Assembly (NCBI GenBank): GCA_035513335.1
Contig: DATKCE010000031.1
Coordinates: 20,971 to 84,970 of the forward strand
Length of the DNA stretch: 64,000 nucleotides
Reading direction: 5' to 3'
Source: Acidimicrobiia bacterium
Lineage (GTDB): Bacteria; Actinomycetota; Acidimicrobiia; Spongiisociales; ZC4RG35
A program made the position numbers and the translations under genes. This document shows positions 2,476 through 62,320 of this stretch, in pieces. The notes beneath the pieces are model-generated. The model saw only the letters and a program-made list of their open reading frames with translations. It had not been told where the DNA came from and did not search any database. Each line of letters opens with the position of its first letter. The stretch's first letter is position 1.

Positions 2476-2730
2476 ATGGCAACCAATCTCTTCGTAGGGA
2501 ACCTTCCCTTCTCGACGAGCTCCTCGGAGCTGGAGGAGCTCTTCGGTCGATTCGGCGCAGTGTCCCGCGCCCAGGTGATCACCGATCGCGACACGGGGCG
2601 TTCCCGTGGCTTCGGTTTCGTCGAGATGGACTCCGACGACGAGGCGCAGCAGGCGATCGAGGCTCTGGACGGCTCCGATATCGACGGGCGCCAGATCAAG
2701 GTCAACGTGGCCCGGGAGCGCTCGCGCTGA
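2476..2730 (+). CDS. RNA-binding protein with a single RRM domain
   Basis: RNP2 LFVGNL and RNP1 RGFGFVEM motifs; 84 aa from ATG at 2476 inside the longer track ORF. Confidence 0.85.
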   Translation: MATNLFVGNLPFSTSSSELEELFGRFGAVSRAQVITDRDTGRSRGFGFVEMDSDDEAQQAIEALDGSDIDGRQIKVNVARERSR

Positions 2731-2743
2731 GCCTCTGACGGGC

Positions 2744-2981: not shown

Positions 2982-3869
2982 CTAGCGGGTCGGAGCTATC
3001 GCTGAGGCGACGGAGGCGGCACCACCGCCGAGCAGCAGCGTGTAGTGGTTGACCCCGGGGAGGTACTCCATGCTCACATTGGGGTTCGAGGCGACCAGGT
3101 CCTCGGCGGCTTTGCGGGGGATCATCCCCCCGGGCTGGTCGAGGGTCCCTCGCTCCACCACGATGACGTGGGTGGGAACTTCGAGGGCGGCTGCCGCTCG
3201 GTTCGCCTCGGTCCCCACGGTGATCTCCCGGGCCCCGACCTCGATGGCGGTGGCGTTCGCCGTCACCTCGAAGCGGTCTTCTTTGGGTACGAGCTCGTGG
3301 CCGAGGGCTTGTCTCATCGAGTCGTCCCAGTGGCTCTCGAAGGCAGGGTGGCTCTTCCAGTGGTCGAAGAACGCGTCTTCGCTGTCGAAGCCCATCTCGA
3401 GTCGTCGTAGCGAGGGGCCGACGATCGAGTCGATGATCTCCTCGGGATCGGCGTCGGGATCGCGCGGGATGGGCAGCCCGCCGTCGACCAGGACCATCCG
3501 CTCCACGCGGTCGGCATGGTTGGCCCCAAACAGGGCAGCGACCCAGCCGCCCATCGAGTAACCGGCGACGATGCCGCGAGCGGTGTCGAGGTGGTCGAGC
3601 GCTCGGGCGATGTCGTCGGCCACGGTGGTCAGATCGTATGGCGGCGGGGCGTCGGCGCTGCCGGCGCGGCCCCTCACGTCGAGGGCGATTATCCCCAACC
3701 CGGGAGGCAGGTGCTCGATCACCGCCCCCCACCAGCGGGAGTTGCCGGAGAGCCCGTGAAGCAGCACCACAGTGCCGGCGTCCTGCGTCGATGGCCGGTA
3801 CCACGCATTGATGTGGCCCCCCGGGATCGGGATCGAGACGTCGCGCATCCATCGGAATGTAGCCGTCAA
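2982..3869 (-). CDS. alpha/beta hydrolase fold protein
   Basis: HGLSGNSRWW oxyanion region and nucleophile elbow GYSMGG; 295 aa. Confidence 0.8.
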   Translation of the reverse strand: MTATFRWMRDVSIPIPGGHINAWYRPSTQDAGTVVLLHGLSGNSRWWGAVIEHLPPGLGIIALDVRGRAGSADAPPPYDLTTVADDIARALDHLDTARGIVAGYSMGGWVAALFGANHADRVERMVLVDGGLPIPRDPDADPEEIIDSIVGPSLRRLEMGFDSEDAFFDHWKSHPAFESHWDDSMRQALGHELVPKEDRFEVTANATAIEVGAREITVGTEANRAAAALEVPTHVIVVERGTLDQPGGMIPRKAAEDLVASNPNVSMEYLPGVNHYTLLLGGGAASVASAIAPTR

Positions 3870-4915
3870 CCGTGGAGCTGCTCGCCTCCGACGTAGGTGG
3901 CGACAACGTCGAGATCCTCGTTCAGGACGACCACGTCGGCCCGGCCACCAACCTCGAGGCTTCCCCTCCGTCCCAGTCCCAGGGCCCGGGCCGGATTGCG
4001 AGTGGCACAGAGCAAAGCCTCGTCGAGGCCGGCCGAGGTGGACGCGACCAGATGGGCCATCGCCCGGGTCAGTGTGACGACACTCCCGGCCAGGCGCCCA
4101 TCGCTGGTGCGGGGCCCGTCATCACCCACCGTGATCGGCCCGTCCCCCAGCGGATATGTGCCCGGCCCCAACCCGAGCGCCGCCATGGCGTCGGTGGCCA
4201 GGATGGTGCGCTCGGGCCCGAGCACCCGCCAGGCGACCTCCAGGATCGCCGCGGCCACGTGGATTCCGTCGGCTATGAGGAGACAGTGTGATGACGAGGT
4301 CAGTGCGGCGCCGACGACTCCCGGCTCGCGGTGTCCCATTGGGCTCATCTGGTTGAACAGATGAGTGACCGTCGAGGCGTAGCCGGCGAGGGCTTCCCTG
4401 GCAATGTCGTGGTCGGCAGCGGTGTGCCCGAGGGAAACGACGACACCGGATTCCGCCAGAGCCATGCCCACCTCGGTGGCGCCGGGCAGTTCCGGGGCGA
4501 GAGTGACCATGCGGACCAACCCGGAGCTCGCCCAGCGCTGCGCCGTGAGCAGGTCAGGTTCGACTATGTGCTCCGGGTTGTGGGCGCCGTGCATGCGTGG
4601 CGATATCCACGGCCCCTCGAAATGCAGCCCGAGGACCTCCGCTCCCCGGTAGTCGGATGGTCGTCGGTTGGCGACCACGTCCATGGCGAGATCGGTGACT
4701 TCGTTCGGTGAGGTGACGATCGTGGGAGTGAACCCGGTGACTCCGAGCTCGGGGAGTAGCCGACCGACCTCCCAGATCGTGGTGGGATCCTGGGTGAAGT
4801 CGTGGCCGAAAGCGCCGTTGATCTGGAGGTCGATTAGACCCGGTGCGACGATGTGCCCGCCGGCGTCGACCGTCGGCCCTCCCAGGCGGTCAGCGACGAG
4901 AACTCCATCTGCCAT
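3866..4915 (-). CDS. nagA: N-acetylglucosamine-6-phosphate deacetylase
   Basis: amidohydrolase signature GLIDLQINGAFGHDF plus downstream metal-ligand His/Asp. Start taken at Met31 (MADGVLV) of the track ORF; 4-nt overlap with the upstream gene. Confidence 0.85.
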   Translation of the reverse strand: MADGVLVADRLGGPTVDAGGHIVAPGLIDLQINGAFGHDFTQDPTTIWEVGRLLPELGVTGFTPTIVTSPNEVTDLAMDVVANRRPSDYRGAEVLGLHFEGPWISPRMHGAHNPEHIVEPDLLTAQRWASSGLVRMVTLAPELPGATEVGMALAESGVVVSLGHTAADHDIAREALAGYASTVTHLFNQMSPMGHREPGVVGAALTSSSHCLLIADGIHVAAAILEVAWRVLGPERTILATDAMAALGLGPGTYPLGDGPITVGDDGPRTSDGRLAGSVVTLTRAMAHLVASTSAGLDEALLCATRNPARALGLGRRGSLEVGGRADVVVLNEDLDVVATYVGGEQLHG

Positions 4916-5035: not shown

Positions 5036-5917
5036 ATGCGGATCGTGGCGGTCCTCGTTGCGACAGTGGCCCTGGCGGCGTGCACAGCCGGCTCCGATGC
5101 GGGACCGGTGACTTCGACGGTGACAGGCGAGACGACGATGGCTCCCACCACCACGACCACCACCGCCCCGGCGACCACCACCACTATCATTCCCACTACC
5201 ACGACCACGAACCGGTTCGCCCGCCCCGAATGGTTGGGCACACGTCCCCTTCCGCTACGTCCCGATGGCCACGGCGAGACCGAGCCCACACCGGACGAGC
5301 TGGTGGACCGTCGACTGGCCACCATCGACCTGCTGGATCCGCCCGCGTCGTCGCGGTTCGAGAGCACCATCGAGCTGCTACCCCCCGATGTCCTGGTCCG
5401 CTCCAGCTGGCGGGACGATTGTCCCGTGGGGGTGGATGACCTGCGCTACCTGACCGTGAGCCACTATGGCTTCGACGGGGAGTTCCACACCGGAGAGATG
5501 ATCGTCAACGTCGCCGTGGCTGAAGACGTGGTCGACGTCTTCGCCAGACTCCACGAGGCGCGATTTCCCATCGAGCAGATGCGGGTGATCCGTGCGGACG
5601 AGATCGACGATCATCCCACCGGAGACTGGAACGAGACCACGTCGTTCGTCTGTCGACCCGCGGTGGGCTCGTCGAATTGGTCACAGCATGCCTTTGGCCT
5701 GGCCATCGACGTCAATCCCTTCCACAATCCCTATCTCAAGGGAGATCTGGTGATCCCGGAACTGGCCTCGGCCTACACCGACAGGGACCACGTGAGACCG
5801 GGCATGCTCGTCGATGGTGACGTCGTGGTGGAGGCCTTCGCCGAGATCGGCTGGACCTGGGGCGGCGACTGGAACAGCCTCAAGGACTGGATGCACTTCT
5901 CCCTGACCGGCCGGTAG
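5036..5917 (+). CDS. peptidase M15 family (D-Ala-D-Ala carboxypeptidase-like) lipoprotein
   Basis: Signal peptide with lipobox LAAC; Thr-rich linker; zinc-ligand motifs SQHAFGLAIDVNP and WGGDWNSLKDWMHF typical of the VanY/M15 family. Confidence 0.8.
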   Translation: MRIVAVLVATVALAACTAGSDAGPVTSTVTGETTMAPTTTTTTAPATTTTIIPTTTTTNRFARPEWLGTRPLPLRPDGHGETEPTPDELVDRRLATIDLLDPPASSRFESTIELLPPDVLVRSSWRDDCPVGVDDLRYLTVSHYGFDGEFHTGEMIVNVAVAEDVVDVFARLHEARFPIEQMRVIRADEIDDHPTGDWNETTSFVCRPAVGSSNWSQHAFGLAIDVNPFHNPYLKGDLVIPELASAYTDRDHVRPGMLVDGDVVVEAFAEIGWTWGGDWNSLKDWMHFSLTGR

Positions 5918-5926
5918 GAAAACGAT

Positions 5927-5963
5927 GGGGGGGGGGCAGCTGTCGCCCGACCGGCGTCTGTTT
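5927..5963. repeat. upstream copy of the imperfect direct repeat flanking dnaE2 (G10 tract + CAGCTG-N4-CCGACCGGCGTCTGTT)
   Basis: G10 at 5927..5936, then CAGCTGTCGCCCGACCGGCGTCTGTT; matches 9451..9476 at 22 of 26 positions. Confidence 0.6.
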
Positions 5964-6068
5964 GAGCGAGCCATCGAGCTGGTGGCGCTGGTACTGAACT
6001 GAGCGGTGTTCCCGCGGCGCGGGCACGAGGTGTCTTGGGACCATGCTCAAAGTCGGGCGACACTATAC

Positions 6069-6082
6069 CGAACATATGTTCG
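6069..6082 (+). promoter_or_regulatory. LexA/SOS box (Cheo-box type) overlapping the dnaE2 start
   Basis: perfect 14-bp palindrome CGAACATATGTTCG (GAAC-N4-GTTC core); one mismatch from TCGAAC-N4-GTTCGA; encloses the in-frame ATG at 6076. Confidence 0.6.
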
Positions 6083-9000
6083 ATATAGTGGGGTGGGTGG
6101 CCCGATACGCCGAGCTCCACTGTCATACCAACTTCTCCTTCCTCGACGGGGCATCGCACCCGGAGGACCTGGTGCAGCGGGCGATGGACCTGGGCTATGA
6201 GGCGCTGGCGGTGACCGACCACAACGGTTTCTACGGAACCTCGCGGTTGTGGCAGGCGGCCAAGGAGACGGGGCTGGCGGTCATCTACGGGGTGGAGATC
6301 TCATTGGAGGCCGACCCCGGCGGTGACCCCAACCCCGTCTCTGGTGCCGAGGAGTGGGACCGGAAGCGTCATGCCCGGAGCAAAGGTGGCCAGGGCCGGT
6401 TGCGGCGGGGTCGATCGATTCGCTCCCACGGTGTCAAGCCGACCCGTCTACCCGAATCGGATCACCTGGTGCTGCTGGCGGGGTCCCCCGACGGCTACCG
6501 GACTCTCTCTCATCTCGTCACCAAGGCGCAGATGCGGGGAGAGAAGGACCATCCGGTCTACACCTGGGACGACCTCGCCGTGGCCGCCACCAACCGGGAC
6601 GTCCACGCCCTCACGGGCTGCCGTCATGGTGCGGTACCCAAGGCGACCTCCGAAGGCCTGGTCGCGGTGGTGAGGGAGACCTCCCGGCTGCGTGAGATGT
6701 TCGGTCCCCGGCTCCACATGGAGTTGTGGCATCACGGCATGCCCGAGGACGACTCCCGCAACGACATGATCTGGGAGGTGGGTCGGAAGCTGGGTGTCTC
6801 GACGGTGGCCACCAACCAGGTGCACTATCACGACCGCTCCGACGCCGACCTGTCCGAGGTGCTGGCCGCGATCGGCGGCCGGAGGACACTGGCCGAGGCC
6901 GATGGGTTCCGGCCGGCCACAGACGAGCGCTACCTGAAGCATCCCAAGGAGATGGAATGGCGATTCTCCCGCTATCCGGGGGCGGTGGAGCGCAGCGCAG
7001 AGCTGGGCCGACGGCTCGCCTTCGACCTGGCCCTGGTGGCCCCCCGGCTTCCGGACTTCCCCATGCCGGGGCATTTCCGCGACGAGATGGGCTATCTCCG
7101 CCATCTCACCTGGGAGGGGGCGAGAGAGATCTATCCAGGATCGGGCCACGGCGTCGCCCCGGCCGCTCGCCGCCGTCTCGAGTACGAGCTCGACATCATC
7201 GAGAGGCTGGGGTTCCCCGGTTACTTTCTGGTGGTCAAGGATCTCGTCGACTTCTCCAGGGAGCAGGGGATCTATTGCCAGATCAGAGGGTCGGGGGCCG
7301 ATTCGGCGGTGTGTCATTGCATCGGGCTGACCCGGGTCGATCCGATCAGGCTCCAACTCCCGTTCGAGCGGTTCCTCTCGGAGGAGAGGGGAAAACCACC
7401 CGACATCGACGTCGACTTCGAGGCAGACCGTCGCGAGGAGGTGATCCAGTATTGCTACCGGCGTTACGGAAGAGAACGGGCGGCGATGGTGGCCAATGTC
7501 ATCACCTACCGAGCCCGGTCGGTGCTCCGTGACGTGGCCAAGACGTTCGGCTTCACCCAGGCTCAGGTCGACGGCTTGTCGAAGTACGTCGACAGCCACG
7601 ATCCGGCCCAATTGCGTGACATGGACATCTCGTTGCCCGAAGGGATCACCTCCGAGATGATCTACGACATCTGCTGGCGGCTCGACGGCTTTCCCCGACA
7701 CCTCGGCATCCACTCCGGGGGAATGGTGATAGCCGACCGGCCCCTCTGGCAGGTGGTGCCACTCGAGTGGGGGCGGATGGAAGGTCGCACGGTCATCCAG
7801 TGGGACAAGGACGACTCGGCCGCGGTGGGCATCGTCAAGTTCGACCTGCTCGGCCTGGGGATGCTCAACGCCCTCCACCTGGCCACCGACCTGGTCGAGG
7901 AGACCCATGGTGTCGAAATCGACCTGGCCCGGATCGCCCAAGAGCCGGCGATATACGAGTCGATGACTCGAGCCGACACCGTTGGCCTGTTCCAGATCGA
8001 GTCGCGTGCCCAGATGGCCACCTTGCCCAAGATGAAGCCGAAGACCTTCTACGACCTGGCCGTCGAGGTGGCACTGATCCGGCCGGGCCCGATCCAGGGT
8101 CAGTCGGTCCACCCTTACCTGCGGCGACGCAATGGTGAGGAGCCGGTTCGCTACCCGCATCCGACCACTGAGCCGATCCTGGAGAAGACCCTCGGCGTGC
8201 CCATCTTCCAGGAGCAACTCATGGAACTGGCCCGGGTCTGCGCCGGTTTCGACGGCTCCCAGGCCGACCGGCTCCGCCAGGCCATGACTCACAAGCGATC
8301 AGCCGAGGCGATGAGCAGACTGCGCGACGAGGTGTATGCCGGGATGGCGTCGAACGGGATCACCGGTCCCGCGGCCGACGAGATCTGGGAGAAACTGCAG
8401 GGTTTCTCGAGCTTTGGCTTCCCGGAGAGCCACTCGGTGAGCTTCGCCTACATCGTGTACATGTCGGCTTGGCTCCGCTTCCACTATCCGGCCGAGTACC
8501 TGGCAGGTCTGCTCAACGCCCAGCCCATGGGCTTCTACAGTCCGAATTCCCTGGTCCAGGATGCGCAACGGCACGGAGTGGTAGTGCTCGCGCCATGCGT
8601 CAACCTCTCTTGGCACGATTGCACGATCGAACCGGTGGACACCGATCCCGACGACGTGGTCTCTCATCTCGGCCAGGAGTGGCGGCGGGGGAGGGGCCAC
8701 GTCGCCGACCCGCTTCGCCCTGCGGTGGCGGTACGCATGGGTCTCCGCTACGTCCGCAACCTGGGGGAGAGGGAGATCACCCGGATCGAGGCGGCCAGAA
8801 TCCTGGGCGGCGAGTTCAGCTCACCGGAGGACCTGGCCTCTCGCTCCGGTCTCGATGTGGCGGCGCTGGAGGGTCTGGCCGCGTCGGGAGCGCTCGGATC
8901 GGTGGGTCTGGGCCGACGCGAGGGTCTGTGGGCCGCTGGTGCGCTGGCCGAGATCGACCCTGAGCGGCTCGCACTGTCTCCGGGGGTGGATGCGCCCACC

Positions 9001-53147: not shown

Positions 53148-53255
53148 CACCTCACCGCATACTCAGGGCGCCAGACTTCGCCGAGCGGGGCCTGAAACCC
53201 TGGGTTCGCTCAATTCACGGCAATTGGCGATTAGGTGGGTATTGTTTTCTGTCAC

Positions 53256-55550
53256 ATGCCAACCCGGACATCCACCCGCAAGGGCTCCGGGCGGAGACGG
53301 GTGTCCTCGAAGAAGAACAAGAAGCCTCAGACGAAGTCCCTCTCGCAGACGCTGGCTGCGGTGCGCGACTCGGTCAGGAACACACTCGGTCGTCAGACCG
53401 ACGACGTCTGGGGTCTCTTACTACTAGTCCTCGCCATCCTGGTGACCCTGGCCTTCTTTGGTCTCGCAGGGCCGGTCGGGGAGGGATTCGAGCGAGGGTC
53501 CCGCTTCCTCTTCGGGGTATGGCGCTACGCCCTCCCGGTCGCGCTGGCAGGGGTCGGCATCGCTTTGATCGTCGGCAAACCGCGGGACGGAGCGCGCAAG
53601 CTGGTCTTCGGTGGCATCACCACGTTCATAGGCACCCTCGCCCTCTTCCACCTCCTCACCGGAGCCGTGGCCTTCCGCTCCTCCCTGGAGCTGGTCCAGG
53701 AGCGTGGAGGGGCCGTCGGCTCTCTGATCGCCTTCCCGATGCGAAGGGTCCTGGGCCACTGGGGTGCCTTCGTGGTGCTCGCCTCCTCGATCGGCATGGG
53801 GGTGCTGATCATGACCCAGACTTCGGTGAGGGAGCTGGCCAACGGCATCGCCGACCTGTGGAGGAACCTGCGCCAGCTCGCCCGTGAGGTCATCGCCGGC
53901 GAGCAGGACGAGCGCGGAGCCCACCTCGCCCGTCCGGTCCAGATCGTCGAGCCGGTCCCGCGGGGGAAGCACCAGCGGCCCGTCGACCAGAGGCCACCCA
54001 AGAAGGAGAGGGGCGAGGCGGAGCCGGTGGCGCCGATCGAGAAGGCCCCCGAGCCCGAGCCGGTGCCGGTGACGCTGGATCTGACCAAGAGCGACTACGA
54101 GCTGCCACCACTGTCGCTCCTCGACGGAGGCACCGGCGGAGAGGTGAACAAGCGGTCCCTGGAGGAGACGGCCCGCCAGCTCGAAGACACCCTGCTCCAA
54201 CACGGTGTCGACGCCCAGCTCACCAAGATCGTGCCCGGCCCCACCGTGACCCGCTACGAGATCGAGCTCGCTCCGGGAGTGAAGGTCAATCGGGTATCCA
54301 ACCTCTCCCACGACATCGCCTACGCGCTGGCCACCCCCGATGTGAGGCTCCTGGTCCCCATCCCCGGCAAGTCGGCCATCGGGGTCGAAGTGCCCAACGT
54401 GAAACGACGCCTGGTCGCCCTCGGCGACATCCTCTCCGCCCCGGAGGCGGCCAAGCCCGCCCATCCCCTCACTGTGGGTCTGGGGATGGACATCTCGGGC
54501 CAACCCAGGCTGCTCAACCTCTCCGAGCTGCCCCACCTCCTCATCGCCGGCGCCACCGGCGCCGGGAAGTCGTCCTGTATCAACTCGATCGTGACCTCAC
54601 TGCTGATGCGGACCCACCCCGACGATGTCAGGGTGATCATGGTCGACCCCAAGCGAGTCGAACTCGGCCAGTACAACGGTGTCCCTCACCTACTCACCCG
54701 GGTCATCACCAACCCCAAGAAGGCCAACGAGGCGCTGAAGTGGGCGGTGGCCGAGATGGACCGCCGCTACGACCTGCTCGCCGACGGAGGGGTGCGGGAC
54801 ATCGAGGGCTACCGGGAGAAGCTAGACGTCGGTGGCCTCGATCCTGAGGGCTTCGACCGCTTCCCCTACGTCGTGGTGATCATCGACGAGCTCAACGATT
54901 TGATGATGGTGGCCGGGCGCGAGGTGGAGGAGTCGATCGTCCGCATCGCCCAGATGGCACGCGCCGTGGGCATTCATCTCGTCATCGCCACCCAGCGTCC
55001 TTCGGTTGATGTCATCACCGGCGTCATCAAGGCCAACGTCCCCAGCCGCCTGGCCTTCAGCGTCGCCTCTCAGACCGACAGTCGTGTCATCATCGACGGG
55101 GCCGGCGCCGAGAAGCTGGTGGGCATGGGCGACATGTTGGTGGTCACAGCCAAGGAGCCGAGACCGCAGCGCATCCAGGGCGCCTGGGTCCGCGAGACCG
55201 AGGTGCACGCCGTGGTCGACTGGGTGAAGAAACAGCGTGAGGCTCGATATCAGGACCAGCAGGTGCTCGAGGCCGCGGCGGCCGCGGCCGCCTCCAGGGC
55301 CGAGGAGGAGGACGACGAAGACGCCGACCTGATCCGACAGGCGATGGAGCTGGTGGTGCGGTCTGAGCTCGGCTCGACCTCCATGCTGCAGCGCAAGCTG
55401 AGGATCGGGTTCGCCCGAGCCGGCAGGGTGATGGACTCCCTGGAGCGGATGGGTGTCGTCGGACCGTCGGTGGGGAGCAAGGCGCGTGACGTCCTGATGA
55501 CGGTCGAGGAGCTCGAAGGGGTGCTCGAGGCCGAATCGGCCGGTGTGTGA
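53256..55550 (+). CDS. ftsK: DNA translocase FtsK
   Basis: N-terminal TM helices, Pro/Glu-rich linker, motor domain with Walker A GATGAGKS, and a C-terminal gamma winged helix. Confidence 0.9.
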   Translation: MPTRTSTRKGSGRRRVSSKKNKKPQTKSLSQTLAAVRDSVRNTLGRQTDDVWGLLLLVLAILVTLAFFGLAGPVGEGFERGSRFLFGVWRYALPVALAGVGIALIVGKPRDGARKLVFGGITTFIGTLALFHLLTGAVAFRSSLELVQERGGAVGSLIAFPMRRVLGHWGAFVVLASSIGMGVLIMTQTSVRELANGIADLWRNLRQLAREVIAGEQDERGAHLARPVQIVEPVPRGKHQRPVDQRPPKKERGEAEPVAPIEKAPEPEPVPVTLDLTKSDYELPPLSLLDGGTGGEVNKRSLEETARQLEDTLLQHGVDAQLTKIVPGPTVTRYEIELAPGVKVNRVSNLSHDIAYALATPDVRLLVPIPGKSAIGVEVPNVKRRLVALGDILSAPEAAKPAHPLTVGLGMDISGQPRLLNLSELPHLLIAGATGAGKSSCINSIVTSLLMRTHPDDVRVIMVDPKRVELGQYNGVPHLLTRVITNPKKANEALKWAVAEMDRRYDLLADGGVRDIEGYREKLDVGGLDPEGFDRFPYVVVIIDELNDLMMVAGREVEESIVRIAQMARAVGIHLVIATQRPSVDVITGVIKANVPSRLAFSVASQTDSRVIIDGAGAEKLVGMGDMLVVTAKEPRPQRIQGAWVRETEVHAVVDWVKKQREARYQDQQVLEAAAAAAASRAEEEDDEDADLIRQAMELVVRSELGSTSMLQRKLRIGFARAGRVMDSLERMGVVGPSVGSKARDVLMTVEELEGVLEAESAGV

Positions 55551-55621: not shown

Positions 55622-56788
55622 GTGAGCTCACGCAAGTCGGGGCTTGGTCGCGGGCTGGACGCTCTGATTCCGACCGCCGGGCCGACATCGGGCGCCGTGA
55701 CACGGCAGACTCGAGAGAATGACAGGCCAGCGATGTTCGGTCTGATCAATCCCGACGGGTCGGTTCGGGACCGGCTTCCGATAACCGTCGACGAGATGAA
55801 AGCGCTCTACGCCGACATGGTCGAGGCGCGCACCTTCGACTCCAAGTCGATGGCGATGCAACGCCAGGGCCGTCTCGCCACCTATGCCCCGTTCCGGGGC
55901 CAGGAAGCAGCCCAGGTGGGTGCCGCGGCGGCGCTAGGCGACGGCGATTGGGTCGCCGCCACCTATCGGGACGCCGCCCTCAACTGGCGGGCCGGTTATC
56001 CGTGGGAGTTGCTGATCCTCGGTCGCACCGGAGACGAACGTGGGGGAGAGCTCCCCGATGGCGTCAACGTCCTTCCCCCTTCGATAACTGTCGGGGGCCA
56101 CATGATCCACGCCGTGGGGCTGGCATGGGCGGAGAAACTGTCCAACGGCGACCGCATCGCTCTCACCTCCTTCGGGGACGGGGCCACGTCGGAAGGCGAC
56201 TTCCACGAGGCGATGAACTTCGCCGCCGTCTACCAGACCCCGACCGTTTTCTTCTGTCAGAACAATGGGTACGCCATCTCGTACCCAATCTCGGAACAGA
56301 CCCGGTCCGAGTCGATCGCGATCAAGGCCGAGGCATACGGCATGCCCGGGATCCGAGTGGATGGCAACGACGTGATCGCGGTTCTCGTCGCGGTCCGTGA
56401 GGCGGCGGCTCTTGCCCGCTCCGGGGAGGGGCCGAGTCTCATCGAGGCGGTCACCTATCGGCTGGGCCCACATACGACCGCGGACGACCCCACCCGCTAC
56501 CGCGACCAGGAGGAGACGGACGCGTGGGAAGAGAGAGACCCGCTGGTCAGGGTGAGGAGACTGTTGGAGCAGCAGGGGGCGTGGTCGGAAGAGTGGCAGG
56601 CCCAACTGGAGCAACAGGCGTCGCAGCGGATCGAGAGTGCGGTCGAGTGGGCGGAGTCGGTCCCGCCTCCCACGTTCGAAGAGATGCTGAGCCGTGTGTT
56701 CGCCGAGCCGACCCAGCCTCTACGACAACAGCTCCGTGAGGGTGGCGACGGAGGGGGCAGCGGAGGGGGCGAGGTGTCGCGTGCCTGA
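55622..56788 (+). CDS. pdhA: 2-oxoacid dehydrogenase E1 component alpha subunit (TPP-dependent; PdhA/BkdA type)
   Basis: TPP motif GDGATSEGDFHEAMNFAAV ... FFCQNNGYAIS; RBS AGGAGAG upstream. Confidence 0.85.
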   Translation: MSSRKSGLGRGLDALIPTAGPTSGAVTRQTRENDRPAMFGLINPDGSVRDRLPITVDEMKALYADMVEARTFDSKSMAMQRQGRLATYAPFRGQEAAQVGAAAALGDGDWVAATYRDAALNWRAGYPWELLILGRTGDERGGELPDGVNVLPPSITVGGHMIHAVGLAWAEKLSNGDRIALTSFGDGATSEGDFHEAMNFAAVYQTPTVFFCQNNGYAISYPISEQTRSESIAIKAEAYGMPGIRVDGNDVIAVLVAVREAAALARSGEGPSLIEAVTYRLGPHTTADDPTRYRDQEETDAWEERDPLVRVRRLLEQQGAWSEEWQAQLEQQASQRIESAVEWAESVPPPTFEEMLSRVFAEPTQPLRQQLREGGDGGGSGGGEVSRA

Positions 56789-56806: not shown

Positions 56807-56870
56807 TGTGAGAATTGAGGGGGGGCGACCCCCCTCGGCCCCCCCGCTCGCGATGGCCGCTCGAGTCGCT

Positions 56871-56909
56871 GGCGAGGTGTCGCGTGCCTGAGGTCAACCT
56901 CGCCCAGGC
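56871..56909. repeat. 39-bp exact direct repeat, copy 2 (contains the pdhB GTG start)
   Basis: identical to 56768..56806; period 103 bp. Intervening 64 bp contain G7 (56819..56825) / C6 / C7 forming a G:C hairpin. Confidence 0.8.
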
Positions 56910-57861
56910 GTTGAACGGGGCGCTGGCCAGCGCACTGGAGACCGATGACCGGGTGGTCCTCCTCGGCGAGGACATCGGGCGCACCGGCGGGGTGTTCCGG
57001 ATCACCGACGGGTTACGCGATCGTTTCGGGGAGAACCGGGTGTTCGACACACCAGTGGCCGAGTCGGGGATCGTCGGTTCGGCGTTCGGCATGGCCATCG
57101 CCGGGATGAGGCCCGTGGCCGAGATCCAGTTCATGGGCTTCTCATATCCGGCCTACGACCAGATCATCAACCACGTCGCCCGGATCCGGAACCGCACCAA
57201 CCACCGTTTCACTGCACCGATGGTGATCCGCATGCCATATGGCGGGGGAATCGGCGCCGCTGAGCACCACTCGGAGTCGACGGAGGCGATCTACGCCCAC
57301 ATCCCGGGAATCAAGGTGGTGGTGCCCTCCACGCCATACGACGCCCGCGGTCTACTGTTGGCGGCGATCGAGGATCCCGACCCTGTTGTCTTCCTGGAAC
57401 CGATCCGGCTCTACCGGGCGGTGAAAGAGGACGTCCCCGACATTCACTTCTCGGTGGAGATCGGACCGGTGCGCGTCGAGCGGACCGGCGACGAGATCAC
57501 TTTGATCAGCTGGGGGGCGATGATGAAGGAGACCCGTGCCGCCGCCTCCCGACTCGAGGAGGACGGAGTCTCCGTGGAGGTCATCGAAGTGCACACTCTG
57601 TCCCCTCTCGACCGTGACGGCATTGTCGCCTCCGTGGACAAGACCGGCCGCGCCGTGGTGATCCATGAGGCCGCACTGACCGGAGGCTTCGGCGGCGAGA
57701 TCGCCGCCACCATTCAGGAGCGAGCGCTCTATTCACTCCATGCGCCGGTGCGGCGCGTCACCGGATGGGACACTGTCTTCCCGCTGAAGCGGTCGGAAGG
57801 TCACTACCTTCCCGACGTGGAGCGGATCGTGAACGCCGCCTACGAGACACTGGAGGTTTGA
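56884..57861 (+). CDS. pdhB: 2-oxoacid dehydrogenase E1 component beta subunit
   Basis: transketolase-like fold (VNLAQALNGALASALETDDRVVLLGEDIG). GTG start lies inside repeat copy 2. Confidence 0.85.
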   Translation: MPEVNLAQALNGALASALETDDRVVLLGEDIGRTGGVFRITDGLRDRFGENRVFDTPVAESGIVGSAFGMAIAGMRPVAEIQFMGFSYPAYDQIINHVARIRNRTNHRFTAPMVIRMPYGGGIGAAEHHSESTEAIYAHIPGIKVVVPSTPYDARGLLLAAIEDPDPVVFLEPIRLYRAVKEDVPDIHFSVEIGPVRVERTGDEITLISWGAMMKETRAAASRLEEDGVSVEVIEVHTLSPLDRDGIVASVDKTGRAVVIHEAALTGGFGGEIAATIQERALYSLHAPVRRVTGWDTVFPLKRSEGHYLPDVERIVNAAYETLEV

Positions 57862-59246
57862 TGGCCCGCGAGTTCAGGCTCCCCGACATCGGAGAGGGCC
57901 TCACCGAAGCCGAGATCGTGCGCTGGCTGGTCCAGGTGGGCGAGGAAGTCCAGGCCGATCAGCCGATCGTCGAGGTGGAGACCGACAAGGCCGTGGTCGA
58001 GATTCCCTCACCGTATGGCGGAGTGATCATTTCTCATGGTGGAGCCGAAGGCGACGTCATCGAGGTCGGCGCAGTCCTGGTCACCATCGGCGAGCCGGGG
58101 GAAGCGACGCCGGAGGCGTCTGAGGGGGGAGATGGGGAGGTGGCGCCGGAGGGTGCGGATGCGGACGTAGTCGGGGCCGACTCGGAACCGGAACCGATCG
58201 TCGGCACACTGCGTGGCGACGTCGAGACGCTGACCCCGTCCCGGTCCCAACCTTCGGTGGCGCCCGCGGTGAAGGCACTGCCCGTGGTGCGCAAGCTGGC
58301 CCGCGACAACGACATCGCTCTCGAGTCCATCCAGGGGTCGGGCCCGGGTGGTCGGATCCTGCGTGAGGACGTGGAGGCCGTCATCGTCGCCCGATCCGAG
58401 ACAGTGCCGTCCGGGGGGCATCATGCCGTCGACTACGAGCCGGTGGGGGCGGGGCATGGGGTCTCCGACTTCGATGAAGAGGCTCGTGCCGAGGTGGAGT
58501 CCCAGCCCCCGGAGGAGCCGGAGTCCGCACCAGGGCCGGAGTCTGCGCCAGTCGAGACGAAGGTGGAGGACGGGCGCCGACCCATGTCCCGGACCCGTCG
58601 CACCATTGCCGCTCACATGGCGAAGAGCTGGTCGGAGATCCCCCACGTGACCACCTTCGACGATGTCGACGCCACCCGTCTCCTCGAGGTGCGCCGGGCG
58701 CTCGGTGACCGCCATGGGATGAAGATCCCGATGGAGGCGCTGGTGGTCAAGGCGGTCCTGCCCGCCTTGGAAGAGTTCCCCGAGTTCAACTCGAGCATCG
58801 ACGGGGACGATCTCGTGTTCCACGCCTCGAGAGACATCGGCATCGCTGTCGACACCCCCGACGGCCTCATGGTGGCGGTGATCCGCGACGCCGGGGAGAA
58901 GAGCGTGATGGAGTTGGCGGCAGAGGTGCGCAGATTGGGCGAGGGTGCCCGCGAGCGCACGCTCACCCCCGACCTGTTGAGTGGTCAGACTTTCACCGTC
59001 TCCAACATCGGCGCCGTGGGTGGTGGTCACGGCACGCCGATCGTGCCTCACGGGACCGTCGCCATCCTCTCGGTTGGCTCCGCACGGCTCCGCCCCGTCG
59101 TCTACGACGAGGACCTCGGAGTGGCGCCGGTGATGCCGCTCTCATTGTCCTACGACCACCGGGTGATCGACGGTGCCGTGGGTCGCCACTTCATGTCCCT
59201 CGTGCTCGAGAACCTCGAGGAACCGGCACTCTTTCTCGCGGGCTGA
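57861..59246 (+). CDS. dihydrolipoamide acyltransferase E2 component
   Basis: lipoyl domain (ETDKAVVEIPSP), Ala/Pro/Glu linker, catalytic domain with DHRVIDG. ATG overlaps the pdhB stop (TGATG); RBS GGAGG. Confidence 0.85.
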   Translation: MAREFRLPDIGEGLTEAEIVRWLVQVGEEVQADQPIVEVETDKAVVEIPSPYGGVIISHGGAEGDVIEVGAVLVTIGEPGEATPEASEGGDGEVAPEGADADVVGADSEPEPIVGTLRGDVETLTPSRSQPSVAPAVKALPVVRKLARDNDIALESIQGSGPGGRILREDVEAVIVARSETVPSGGHHAVDYEPVGAGHGVSDFDEEARAEVESQPPEEPESAPGPESAPVETKVEDGRRPMSRTRRTIAAHMAKSWSEIPHVTTFDDVDATRLLEVRRALGDRHGMKIPMEALVVKAVLPALEEFPEFNSSIDGDDLVFHASRDIGIAVDTPDGLMVAVIRDAGEKSVMELAAEVRRLGEGARERTLTPDLLSGQTFTVSNIGAVGGGHGTPIVPHGTVAILSVGSARLRPVVYDEDLGVAPVMPLSLSYDHRVIDGAVGRHFMSLVLENLEEPALFLAG

Positions 59247-59249
59247 GCA

Positions 59250-60200
59250 GTGACCAACGACGACGAGATCCTCTTGTTCGCGGGTAACGGAAGCAAGATT
59301 TTGGGTCAGCGGATCGCTGACGAGCTGAGAATCGATGTCAGCCAGGGGGATACCAGCGTGTTCCCCGACGGGAACCTGTTCGTCAAAGTGGGGGCGAACG
59401 TGCGGGGGCGACACGTGTACCTGGTGCAGTCGACGGTGTTTCCGAGCAACGACAACTTCATGGAGCTGTTGTTCTGGATCGACGCCTTCAAACGGGCGAG
59501 CGCCGAGTCGGTGACCGTTGTCATACCGTATTTCAGCTATGCCAAAGGGGACAAGAAAGACGAGCCGAGGGTCTCGATTCGGGCACGTGTCTGTGCCGAC
59601 GCGATCGAGTCGGCCGGCGCGGATCGGGTGGTGGCGATGGATCTGCATGCTCCTCAGATCCAGGGCTTCTTCCGCATCCCGGTCGACAACCTCTACGGGA
59701 TGCCGGTGCTCTGCGATCAGATCGAAGAACTCGATCTCGAGAATCTCGTCGTGGTCTCACCAGACGCCGGGTTCGCCAGGCAGGCCAGGAGGTTTGGCGC
59801 GACCCTGAGCGCATCGGTGGCCATCGCCGACAAGGAGCGCCGGGGTCACGATCAGCATCCCGAGGTGTTACGGATCATGGGCGAAGTGGAGGCCAAGACA
59901 GCCTTGATCGTCGATGATTTCACCCTCTCGACCGGCACGCTCGTGTCCGCAGCAGAGGAGCTGATGAGGCGTGGCGCCGCCACGGTGTACGCTCTGGTGA
60001 CCCACGGTGTCTTTGCGGAGGGCTCGATGGAGCGACTCGATGACAGCCCTATCGTGAAGTTGTTCGTCACTGACACCGTCGAGAACCAGCCGGTTACATT
60101 CTCCGAGAAGGTCGACGTCGTTTCGGTGGCTCCGCTGTTCGCCGAGGCCATCACCCGCATCCATCACCGGGCGAGCATCAGCGAGCTCTTTCCGGGCTGA
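59250..60200 (+). CDS. prs: ribose-phosphate pyrophosphokinase
   Basis: VIPYFSYAKGDKKD and DLHAPQIQGFF motifs; PRPP-binding loop. Confidence 0.9.
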   Translation: MTNDDEILLFAGNGSKILGQRIADELRIDVSQGDTSVFPDGNLFVKVGANVRGRHVYLVQSTVFPSNDNFMELLFWIDAFKRASAESVTVVIPYFSYAKGDKKDEPRVSIRARVCADAIESAGADRVVAMDLHAPQIQGFFRIPVDNLYGMPVLCDQIEELDLENLVVVSPDAGFARQARRFGATLSASVAIADKERRGHDQHPEVLRIMGEVEAKTALIVDDFTLSTGTLVSAAEELMRRGAATVYALVTHGVFAEGSMERLDDSPIVKLFVTDTVENQPVTFSEKVDVVSVAPLFAEAITRIHHRASISELFPG

Positions 60201-60254
60201 GCCGGCATGCCTAGCCTCGCGGTGACCGGCCCCAGACAGATCTACCGAGGCTGA

Positions 60255-60821
60255 ATGCCCCACGTACACCTCTTCGACTACGACGAGACCACCGGTATCG
60301 CCAGACGCGAGTACGACGCCGCGCTGCGCCGGGCGGGGCGAATCTGGAACATCGTCTCCATCCAGTGCCAGCTCCCCGAGGTGATGCGCGATTCGATGCG
60401 CATCTACCAGTCGATCATGTTCGGGCCGTCACCGCTGACGAGGGCGCAGCGGGAGATGATGGCGGTGGTGACATCACAGGTGAACGAATGCCACTACTGA
60501 ATAGCGGCGCACCTCCACGATCTCCGGGACGAGATCGAAGACCAGCAGATTGCAGACGGGATCGCCGTCGACTGGCGTACGGCCGATCTGGAGCCTGCCG
60601 AGGTCGCCCTCTGTGAGTACGCCGAGAAGCTGACCAGAAGGCCCGCGGATGTCGGGCCCGAGGACATCGACCGGCTCCGCGCCGCGGGCTTCGACGACCA
60701 GGGGATCTCCAGCGCCACCCAGGTCGTCGCCTACTTCAACTACATCAATCGGATCGCAGAAGGGTTGGGTGTGCCGATGGAAGATTGGCTGAACGCGGAC
60801 GGAACTCCCCGCGAGATCTAG
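60255..60821 (+). CDS. carboxymuconolactone decarboxylase / AhpD-core family protein with in-frame UGA (candidate selenoprotein)
   Basis: Reads VNECHY[TGA]IAAH at 60481..60512 where the family motif N-x-C-x-Y-C-x-x-x-H has its second Cys. The frame stays open to TAG 60819..60821 and encodes the family C-terminal half (VVAYFNYINRIAEGLGV). Confidence 0.5.
60518..60537 (+). promoter_or_regulatory. SECIS-like hairpin downstream of the in-frame UGA
   Basis: 7-bp stem CGATCTC/GAGATCG with 6-nt loop CGGGAC (G at loop position 2). Stem starts 17 nt and loop ~24 nt after UGA. Confidence 0.35.
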
Positions 60822-60832
60822 CCTCGCATCTC

Positions 60833-62320
60833 ATGGGCAAAGACAACGACCAGGTCAAGGAGAAGAAGAAGAAGAAGCCGAAGGCGAAGCAGGCGAAGCT
60901 GGAGGACCGGAAGGTCAGCAAGCAGTTCACCGGGAAGTTCGGCAAGGAGAAGGTGGCCTACACCACCATCGCGGCCACGCAGTCATTCGAGAGCAACGAC
61001 GAGCCGGTCTCCTTCTTCCACGTCTCGTATACCAAGGACGACGCCGATCCCGCCACCCGCCCGATTCTGTTCTGTTTCAACGGTGGCCCCGGCTCGTCGA
61101 CCGTGTGGCTCAATCTGGGCTTGTTCGGTCCGAAACGGATGCAGTTCGACGACGACGGATTCAAGGTCGGCATGCAGGGCCGCCTGGTGGACAACGAGCA
61201 ATCCATCCTCGACGTGGCCGACGTGGTCTGCATCGACGCCATGGGCACGGGGTTCAGCCGCACGGCGAAAAAGGGCGAGGAGAAGAAGTTCCACCACTTC
61301 AAGAAGGACATCGAGGCGTTCGCCGAGTTCATCGTCCACTACCTGAACCGCAACGGGCGGTGGGCGTCTCCGAAATACCTCGCAGGGGAGAGCTACGGCA
61401 CCCTGCGCGGTGCGGGGATCGCACATGAGTTGTTCGCCAAGCATCACGTCGAGTTCAACGGGATCGTCTTCATCTCGATGATCCTCAACTATCAGACCTC
61501 GGCCATCGATAGAGAGACGATGCTGGTCCACCCCGGCAACGACCTGCCCTTCGCGGTGTACCTGCCCACCTATGCGGCCACGGCCTGGTATCACGGCAGG
61601 TTGCCGAAGAAGCACCAGGAGAGGCCGTTGCGGGACTTCCTCGACGAGGTGGAGGAGTTCGCCCTCGGCGAGTATTGGTCGGCGCTGGCCCAAGGAGATC
61701 AGCTCGACGAGACCTGGCAGAAGAAGGTTGCCGAGAAACTGGCGGAGTACACGGGTCTCGACGCCGGGTTCATCGACCACTACAACCTGCGCATCCACAT
61801 CATGCGGTTCTGCAAAGAGCTGCTCCGTGATCAGCGGCGCACCGTGGGGCGGATAGACTCCCGCTTTCTCGGCATCGACCGGGTCTCCGCCGGTGACAAC
61901 CTCGAGGCCGACCCCAGCACCGATGCCACCGGAGGCGTGGCCGCGTCGGCGCTCAACCAGTACCTGCGTGAGGAAGTCGGGTTCGAGTCCGACGACATCT
62001 ACAACGTGATGGCGATGGACGTGTGGAAGACCTGGGACTACGAGGACTTCAAGGGCCGGTACGTGGACACCTCGGAGAACTTCCGCGAGGTGCTGTCGCG
62101 GTCACGGGGCACGAAGGTGCTGATCGCCAACGGCTATTACGACCTGGCCACCCCCCATTTCGCCACCGAGTACACCGTGTCGCACATGGGACTCGACCCC
62201 GAGGTGAGGGAGAACATCACCCTGACCTACTACGAGGCCGGTCATATGATGTATGTCCATCAGCCGTCGCTGAAGCAGTTGGCCGCCGACCTCCGCGAGT
62301 TCGTCGAATCAACTTGCTAA
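60833..62320 (+). CDS. peptidase S10-family (serine carboxypeptidase-like) protein with Lys-rich N-terminus
   Basis: FNGGPGSS (S10 GGPG motif) and catalytic-Ser motif GESYG; N-terminal KEKKKKKPKAKQAK encoded by an (AAG)5 repeat. Confidence 0.75.
   Translation: MGKDNDQVKEKKKKKPKAKQAKLEDRKVSKQFTGKFGKEKVAYTTIAATQSFESNDEPVSFFHVSYTKDDADPATRPILFCFNGGPGSSTVWLNLGLFGPKRMQFDDDGFKVGMQGRLVDNEQSILDVADVVCIDAMGTGFSRTAKKGEEKKFHHFKKDIEAFAEFIVHYLNRNGRWASPKYLAGESYGTLRGAGIAHELFAKHHVEFNGIVFISMILNYQTSAIDRETMLVHPGNDLPFAVYLPTYAATAWYHGRLPKKHQERPLRDFLDEVEEFALGEYWSALAQGDQLDETWQKKVAEKLAEYTGLDAGFIDHYNLRIHIMRFCKELLRDQRRTVGRIDSRFLGIDRVSAGDNLEADPSTDATGGVAASALNQYLREEVGFESDDIYNVMAMDVWKTWDYEDFKGRYVDTSENFREVLSRSRGTKVLIANGYYDLATPHFATEYTVSHMGLDPEVRENITLTYYEAGHMMYVHQPSLKQLAADLREFVESTC

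Follow-up and report, generated by a model that had tools for sequence, protein, structure and literature searches.

A probable AhpD-like selenoprotein and its predicted, conserved SECIS hairpin in an uncultured lineage of Acidimicrobiia

The AhpD-like proteins (COG2128) entered the catalogue of selenoproteins in 2005, when they were described from the Sargasso Sea as a new family with a CxxU motif, comprising 27 sequences, with the predicted bacterial selenocysteine insertion sequence (bSECIS) presented in Figure 3 of that study (Zhang et al. 2005, PMC1088965). In the Global Ocean Sampling (GOS) data, 'AhpD-like 1' ranked fourth in abundance among the prokaryotic selenoprotein families, being represented by 299 genes from 37 samples next to 902 cysteine homologues (Zhang & Gladyshev 2008, PMC2398784); the family has a page in BSepDB and is entered in a 2026 review as 'AhpD-like protein', TIGR01926, CxxU (PMC13188914). 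Here we analyze a candidate member of this family that is encoded at positions 60255..60821, on the forward strand, of a 64,000-nucleotide stretch of DNA from an uncultured Acidimicrobiia bacterium (assembly GCA_035513335.1, contig DATKCE010000031.1; hereafter, the window), and the coding sequence of which is interrupted by an in-frame UGA. The first-pass annotation of the window had presented AhpD-like proteins as a known but rare selenoprotein family; known they have been since 2005, but the GOS ranking leaves no room for rarity. As argued below from comparison of sequences, we put at about 0.92 the probability that 60255..60821 is one intact, functional AhpD-like selenoprotein gene of the TIGR01926 family.

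The open reading frame (ORF) starting at ATG 60255, 4 nt downstream of a likely Shine-Dalgarno sequence (GAGG, 60247..60250, forward strand), stops at TGA 60498..60500, within the peptide V-N-E-C-H-Y-[TGA]-I-A-A-H, where the C-x-x-C redox motif calls for its second cysteine. The same frame then continues for 106 sense codons to TAG 60819..60821, for a total of 188 codons including the one that is probably read as selenocysteine (Sec82). Both the position of this break and the presence of the C-terminal half of the family in the same frame had been recognized in the first-pass annotation, and both hold. When the TGA position is set to cysteine in the 188-residue product, the NCBIfam profile TIGR01926 ('peroxidase-related enzyme') is matched with 150.1 bits, against a cutoff of 81.8, over residues 7-176 (profile positions 6-176 of 178), and the Pfam domain CMD (PF02627) with 44.4 bits, against a cutoff of 23, over residues 41-124, in each case as one match that runs across the TGA. 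The profile of the canonical AhpD of the Mycobacterium tuberculosis type, TIGR00777, yields only 17.5 bits against its cutoff of 191.95, and all that is common to the window protein and canonical AhpD at this level is the core domain TIGR00778 (43.5 bits against 27.8); thus, the protein is not a canonical AhpD, although the catalytic relay is common to both. Nor does it classify as a gamma-carboxymuconolactone decarboxylase: the CMD domain is there, but it harbors an AhpD-type C-x-x-U motif and a proton relay, whereas gamma-CMD members are without the C-x-x-C and the relay (PMC3141380). The window gene displays every feature of the AhpD-like selenoprotein family (TIGR01926/COG2128, CxxU) that can be assessed in silico.

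The most telling observation is the conservation of the TGA codon itself. A protein search for relatives returned 160 sequences, and a scan of the species-representative genomes of GTDB, one genome per species, recovered 80 loci (labelled L001 onward) encoding proteins with 45-96% identity to the window protein; three further loci were examined beside them (L081, L082 and L083). Of the 80 species-representative genomes, which represent at least seven phyla, 79 have TGA at the homologous codon and one (L015) has TGC, and TAA or TAG never occurs there. The TGA-bearing loci are labelled as Acidimicrobiia, Ca. Actinomarina, Chloroflexota/Anaerolineae, Planctomycetota, Latescibacterota, Marinimicrobia, Acidobacteriota (Bryobacterales), Gemmatimonadota (Gemmatimonadales) and Thermoleophilia, among others, and the nearest relative, L001, with a 96% identical protein, belongs to a metagenome-assembled genome (MAG) of an uncultured Acidimicrobiaceae, which places the source of the window in Acidimicrobiia. 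Some of the taxonomic labels look wrong. Two loci assigned to 'uncultured Klebsiella sp.' (L030, L038) carry the same gene variant as the Roseiflexaceae MAGs L031, L042 and L043, and four others labelled Acidobacteria or Acidobacteriota (L008, L012, L014 and L015) display the full gene order of Acidimicrobiia (FtsK, E1, E2, AhpD-like gene, S10 peptidase, regulator).

Public protein sets obscure this picture. Many of the 160 protein matches are of half length: N-terminal fragments end exactly at ...N-E-C-H-Y, and dozens of C-terminal fragments start at query residues 83-87, the pattern expected from gene callers that halt at a selenocysteine codon (the half-length fragments are P0022-P0120). 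Close relatives that are nominally 'full-length' show W or R at the Sec position, whereas the true Cys forms have Cys there. For one of these entries, P0001, the corresponding DNA (L081) contains TGA, so that the W is an annotation artefact; W also appears at this position in P0002, P0015-P0019, P0021 and P0023, and such entries presumably stem from pipelines that switch to an alternative genetic code. The family thus is systematically misannotated, being either split at the UGA or given a Trp in its place. Arg is seen in two instances. In L083 (601..1164; Logan SRR14116348, protein P0010), the Sec codon is replaced by CGA (Arg) while the SECIS-type hairpin is intact (GACCTCCGGGCCGAGGTC), which might be explained by a TGA->CGA mutation of very recent date, by a read error, the contig being short, or by inactivity of this variant; R likewise stands at this position in the protein entry P0020.

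The Sec column is occupied by Cys in P0003-P0014, L015, L082 and the two closest solved structures. These are 2oyo ('uncharacterized peroxidase-related protein', E = 3e-30) and 6k40 (the Deinococcus radiodurans AhpD-like protein DR1765, E = 1e-28), and in both, the TGA aligns with the second Cys of N-R-C-x-Y-C-A-V-S-H (N-R-C-L-Y-C-A-V-S-H); alignment with Cys homologues, which the first-pass annotation had suggested as a check, places Cys opposite the TGA. A further alignment, to 2ijc/2o4d, bears on the relay glutamate (Glu67, below) and puts query residue 60 on chain residue 29. Several Cys forms retain the second Cys alone (S-T-x-Y-C; S-T-R-Y-C), which implies that this position, the one taken by Sec, is indispensable. 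The proton relay of M. tuberculosis AhpD consists of Glu118, Cys130, His132, Cys133 and His137, and that of PA0269 of Glu36, Cys48, Tyr50, Cys51 and His55 (PMC3141380). In the window protein, Glu67 (codon 60453..60455, the counterpart of Glu118 and Glu36), Cys79, Tyr81, Sec82 and His86 stand at spacing identical to that of the published relay, E-x11-C-x-(H/Y)-C/U-x3-H, with the active-site motif Cys79-His-Tyr81-Sec82-Ile-Ala-Ala-His86 (C-x-x-U-x-x-x-H) encoded at 60489..60512, and the family alignment A1 shows no variation at Glu67, Tyr81 or His86. In mutagenesis studies of M. tuberculosis AhpD, Cys133, the equivalent of Sec82, is reported to be the attacking nucleophile.

The part of the gene beyond the TGA evolves like a normal coding sequence. 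In comparison with the Acidimicrobiia relatives L002-L014, the 106 codons that follow the TGA show synonymous divergence (dS) of 0.8-2.5 and nonsynonymous divergence (dN) of 0.14-0.40, for dN/dS of about 0.1-0.4, with neither frameshifts nor extra stops, a pattern similar in kind to that of the N-terminal half. By the measure of these substitutions, the C-terminal half is under purifying selection and is translated.

Downstream of the UGA, the RNA is predicted to form a small hairpin at 60518..60537 (forward strand), which begins 17 nt after the UGA, is encoded within His-Asp-Leu-Arg-Asp-Glu-Ile-Glu, and has a 7-bp stem (60518..60524 paired with 60531..60537) and a 6-nt loop, CGGGAC (60525..60530). 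The first-pass annotation had noticed this hairpin and considered its geometry compatible with a bacterial SECIS; the hairpin proved to be conserved in register, with covariation, and its geometry agrees on all four published points with the bSECIS consensus model of Zhang and Gladyshev, as given in PMC13188914 (Fig. 2). In this model, an upper stem of 4-16 bp carries an apical loop of 3-9 nt, a G stands first or second in the loop, in most cases with a G or U behind it, 16-37 nt separate the loop from the UGA, and the minimum free energy is no more than -7.5 kcal/mol. The window element combines a 6-nt loop with a 7-bp stem, its loop starts C-G-G, 24 nt lie between the A of the UGA (60500) and the first loop base (60525), and the 24 nt of the minimal element reach -9.6 kcal/mol (z = -2.6), some low-GC relatives attaining only -6.9. 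A scan of the whole window against Rfam at gathering thresholds gave no match, which is uninformative given that bacterial SECIS elements are poorly represented in that database, a point also made in the 2026 preprint on Actinomarina cited below.

When the 79 TGA-bearing sequences are aligned without gaps over 48 nt starting at the TGA, the stem falls at columns 21-27 and 34-40 in all 79, in identical register. Standard pairs fill 93.9% of the pair cells, compared to 22-46% after a shift of the 3' arm by 1-3 nt, and three of the seven pairs show changes on both sides, in 26 cells, with C-G<->U-A replacements that are compensatory (GAU...AUC <-> GAC...GUC; CUC...GAG <-> UUC...GAA). Neither the covariation score nor the number of double-change cells was reached in any of 500 shuffles. 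In the loop, G is invariant at column 29, and column 30 alternates between G (46 of the 79 sequences) and T (the other 33), with no A or C. A variant with Arg-Ser (CGG TCG) in place of Arg-Asp/Ala at +28..+33 is present in L018, L019, L022-L029, L033, L035, L041 and L044; it closes an extra C-G pair to produce a GGUC tetraloop, the other members having a 6-nt loop of the form C-G-[G/U]-N-N-N.

Several observations pull in the opposite direction and have to be set against the interpretation of UGA as Sec. The 63 nt that follow the UGA fold at -14.4 kcal/mol with z = -0.15 and so are no more stable than shuffled sequences; hence the significance of the hairpin rests on comparison rather than on energy. 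The stem encodes the conserved peptide D-L-R-x-E-V, so that its conservation is in part that of the protein. Neither selA, selB or selD, for which approximate E. coli SelA, SelB and SelD sequences were used as tblastn probes, nor any tRNA, including tRNA-Sec, was found in the 64-kb window. A second TGA-interrupted gene was not detected in the window either, by a crude screen based on GC1/GC2/GC3 signatures and the distance to the next start; this screen is noisy because antisense frames mimic coding at 66% GC, and a true coding signature flanked just two sites on both sides, 59244 on the plus strand and 38816 on the minus strand, each of them an ordinary gene boundary.

Since the stem lies within a conserved peptide, the synonymous sites were examined, and these are strongly constrained. 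Within the stem, CTC encodes 73 of 76 Leu, GAG 76 of 79 Glu and GTC 53 of 57 Val residues, and the Arg codon of the loop is CGG in 46 and CGT in 33 of the 79 sequences, with no others; conserved Leu, Arg, Glu and Val residues elsewhere in the gene use 4-6 codons, with third-position entropies of 1.0-1.9 bits, and the other conserved Leu positions use six. In ten genomes of Ca. Actinomarina (32% GC), CGG accounts for 1.3% of Arg codons, CTC for 5% of Leu and GAG for 24% of Glu, and the element nevertheless contains CGG in 10 of 10, CTC in 8 of 10 and GAG in 10 of 10, the neighboring Leu codon being at background usage. The hairpin is weakened or lost in both Cys-form genes for which DNA was examined: in L015 (GAC TAT CGG GAT GAG GTC) it is degraded to -5.2 kcal/mol, and in L082 (GAC CTC CGA GAT GAG CTC) there is a C-C mismatch and no fold in register, the loop codon of the latter, CGA, never occurring among the Sec forms. 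Covariation and synonymous constraint, which for the SECIS of this family are unusually clean, argue that the RNA structure is functional.

The machinery for Sec insertion, although not seen in the window, accompanies some of the homologues. In L051, an Actinomycetota MAG, the TGA-bearing gene (3661..4212) lies 0.9 kb from a tRNA-Sec with anticodon TCA (2649..2742, minus strand) and 1.5-4.4 kb from selB (TIGR00475, 357 bits against 242) and selA (TIGR00474, 513.5 bits against 268), and in two loci of Thermoleophilia, L061 and L070, selA and selB follow 1-3 kb downstream of the homologue; the selA and selB matches in all three came from tblastn with the approximate probes and were confirmed with curated hidden Markov models. 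This compact arrangement, in which the machinery adjoins its apparent client, spans 2649..8608 in L051, 11523..13752 in L061 and 8269..10826 in L070, all of them Actinomycetota MAGs. selD was not found in any of the homologue loci by tblastn with the approximate E. coli SelD. Closer to home, selA, selC and selD, together with a divergent selB, have been reported in all 84 complete genomes of Actinomarina, an order within Acidimicrobiia (2026 preprint), and Actinomarina contributes 10 of the TGA-bearing loci analyzed here. We infer that the organism from which the window derives has the capacity to make selenocysteine, and the gene marks this uncultured lineage of Acidimicrobiia as a probable selenium user.

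Among the alternatives to Sec, the one that fares best, improbable as we consider it, holds that the UGA is read without selenium, through near-cognate suppression by Trp, Cys or Arg or under a code in which UGA is sense, with the hairpin merely stimulating read-through. The W found at this position in several database entries, the CGA (Arg) codon that coexists with an intact hairpin in L083, and the failure to see Sec machinery in the window would all be compatible with this possibility, but the W entries represent TGA in the DNA, as verified for L081, and TGA is the stop of 31 of the 41 confidently coding ORFs in the window, that is, an ordinary stop and not a general sense codon, so that UGA is not reassigned in this organism. 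Moreover, homologues have their catalytic Cys at this position, and an enzyme with Trp or Arg there would be inactive; the hairpin has the G-[G/U] loop signature and the spacing of a SelB-dependent SECIS; and homologues are linked to selA, selB and selC.

Less plausible still is a genuinely split gene, in which the TGA is a true stop and two polypeptides assemble into one AhpD-like domain. This would account for the separate C-terminal ORFs that are called in many relatives and start at an I, V or M codon just past the TGA, but in the window, the TGA is followed by ATA, and about 88 codons pass before the frame offers an ATG, GTG or TTG, so that the C-terminal half could not be initiated separately. 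Furthermore, the chain would be cut within the catalytic helix that bears the C-x-x-C, right at the catalytic residue, the codon is always TGA and never TAA or TAG, and the product would miss the essential second redox residue that is kept in the Cys forms. The possibility that the TGA results from a sequencing error or a recent TGC->TGA mutation, or that the gene is a pseudogene, such that only an 81-residue N-terminal fragment or nothing useful is made, was entertained in the first-pass annotation, and although TGA is one base away from TGC and the splitting of the gene by gene callers has filled the databases with half-length entries, this option has next to nothing left to recommend it in view of the TGA in 79 of 80 independent genomes, the purifying selection on a downstream half free of frameshifts and stops, and the conserved, covarying hairpin. 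Taken together, the conservation of the TGA, the selection on the downstream half, the lack of a start codon and the routine use of TGA as a stop exclude sequencing error, pseudogene, split gene and a change of the genetic code. The Sec-containing AhpD-like protein proposed in the first-pass annotation is thus what the TGA conservation, the selection, the constraint on the hairpin and the Cys aligned with the TGA all point to; the contrary outcome contemplated there, with homologues that never carry Sec and a hairpin that is not conserved, is the reverse of what was found.

If the selenoprotein interpretation is correct, the UGA at 60498..60500 would be decoded as Sec within a single 188-residue thiol/selenol oxidoreductase, the hairpin recruiting SelB-GTP-Sec-tRNA(Sec) as the UGA enters the A site and translation running on into the C-terminal half, as the comparative evidence suggests. 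Sec82 would replace the second Cys of the C-x-x-C center and would sit in the AhpD proton relay. In what seems the most likely chemistry, the selenolate of Sec82 would attack an oxidised partner or a peroxide, and Cys79 would resolve the product to a selenenylsulfide. A dihydrolipoyl-E2 domain would then probably return the enzyme to its reduced state, as suggested by the parallel with M. tuberculosis and by the position of the gene behind an E1-E2 operon, and the electrons might pass to a peroxiredoxin-type partner or directly to hydroperoxides, the least certain step of the scheme.

This last part of the scheme derives from the genomic neighborhood. In the window, an FtsK gene (53235..55550) is followed by the genes for E1-alpha (55622..56788; Pfam E1_dh) and E1-beta (56815..57861; Transket_pyr and Transketolase_C) of a 2-oxoacid dehydrogenase, for a lipoyl-bearing E2 (57858..59246; Biotin_lipoyl, E3_binding and 2-oxoacid_dh) and for the ribose-phosphate diphosphokinase prs (59250..60200; NF002320, 362.6 bits), those from E1-alpha to prs all on the forward strand; prs separates E2 from the selenoprotein gene. 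Directly downstream of the latter comes a gene for an S10-type serine carboxypeptidase (60833..62320; no NCBIfam match) and then, on the opposite strand, one for a helix-turn-helix regulator. The peptidase has a strongly Lys-rich N-terminus (MGKDNDQVKEKKKKKPKAKQAKLEDRK...) and adjoins the selenoprotein gene in 13 relatives. In 13 related loci, E2 precedes the AhpD-like gene, and in 11 of these (L001, L003, L004, L007-L012, L014 and L015, the last being a Cys form), only 2-6 nt separate the stop of E2 from the start of the AhpD-like gene; the gap is about 340 nt in L005. Apart from the window, prs intervenes at this position in only one of the 13 syntenic loci, L002 (compared over 5902..8778), and it is missing there in L001 (8640..10564) despite the 96% protein identity; on this comparison, prs was recently inserted into, or lost from, a block that is conserved in other respects.

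Over the 80 loci, neighbors are specific to clades, namely, E2 in Acidimicrobiia, DUF3152 and a PNPOx-like gene in Actinomarina, and an Ada-type regulator/methyltransferase in Chloroflexota. There is no universal gene neighbor across the 80 loci and no peroxiredoxin partner among the conserved ones, and ahpC is not adjacent in the window. In M. tuberculosis, electrons flow from NADH through Lpd, DlaT (E2), AhpD and AhpC to ROOH (PMC12028322), and AhpD-type proteins have been described as lipoyl-dependent reductases (PMC8945050); given such reductases, adjacency to E2 is a pointer to dihydrolipoyl E2 as the electron donor. By this analogy, the selenoprotein of this clade might be an accessory of the 2-oxoacid dehydrogenase complex, co-transcribed with E1-alpha, E1-beta and E2 and drawing electrons from dihydrolipoyl E2, a tentative suggestion that we regard as less likely than not. 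The E2 neighborhood is limited to one clade (13 loci) and is broken by prs in the window itself, both of which count against it, so that the adjacency could be inherited gene order devoid of functional meaning.

If the suggestion nonetheless held, the protein, with selenium as the attacking atom, would be a lipoyl-driven selenoperoxidase, or a selenol-disulfide relay, tying central carbon metabolism to peroxide defence, or else would serve to protect the lipoyl cofactor, and this would be the first physiological context for the family. The literature on AhpD-like selenoproteins that was searched yielded no mention of an E2-operon context, and the E2-operon position in this clade of Acidimicrobiia is the only point of the present analysis that is new, and mildly so; its value is that it may point the way to the reductant of a marine selenoprotein family that is abundant yet biochemically uncharacterised. 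What is understood of selenocysteine decoding is unchanged. For annotation, the consequence is immediate: the fragments 60255..60500 and 60501..60821 belong merged as a single selenoprotein gene.

The comparison with characterized systems can be made at several levels. The prototype bacterial SECIS, that of E. coli fdhF, is likewise a small hairpin located within the coding sequence just after the UGA, whose small apical loop exposes a G with a G or U behind it; the stems lack sequence similarity, and binding of SelB to the window hairpin is a prediction. A subset of the family, comprising Actinomarina, L018, L019, L023 and L041, has a GGUC tetraloop, which is the loop sequence of the fdhF SECIS itself; in the window, the loop lies about 7 nt further from the UGA than in fdhF. 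The structurally characterized proteins 2oyo and 6k40 (DR1765) are aligned with the window protein through the N-x-C-x-Y-C-x-x-x-H of the active site, and a mutant of DR1765 reportedly shows a sensitivity to H2O2 that depends on the CxxC cysteines; these proteins, in contrast to the window protein, carry Cys, without a UGA or a SECIS, and come from other phyla. M. tuberculosis AhpD (TIGR00777), the lipoamide-dependent reductant of AhpC, shares the catalytic helix-turn-helix and the spacing of the five-residue relay, and the E2 linkage in the window echoes the Lpd-DlaT-AhpD-AhpC chain, but AhpD belongs to another subfamily, the catalytic helices of the window protein are central rather than C-terminal, Sec stands in for Cys, and no ahpC is adjacent. 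The closest counterpart is the known AhpD-like selenoprotein family, with the same TIGR01926 profile, a CxxU motif with Sec in the second position, a predicted bSECIS directly downstream, widespread Cys homologues, and an environmental or marine distribution. From these selenoproteins, the window gene differs in nothing essential; it is a copy from an uncultured lineage of Acidimicrobiia and lies behind an E1-E2 operon.

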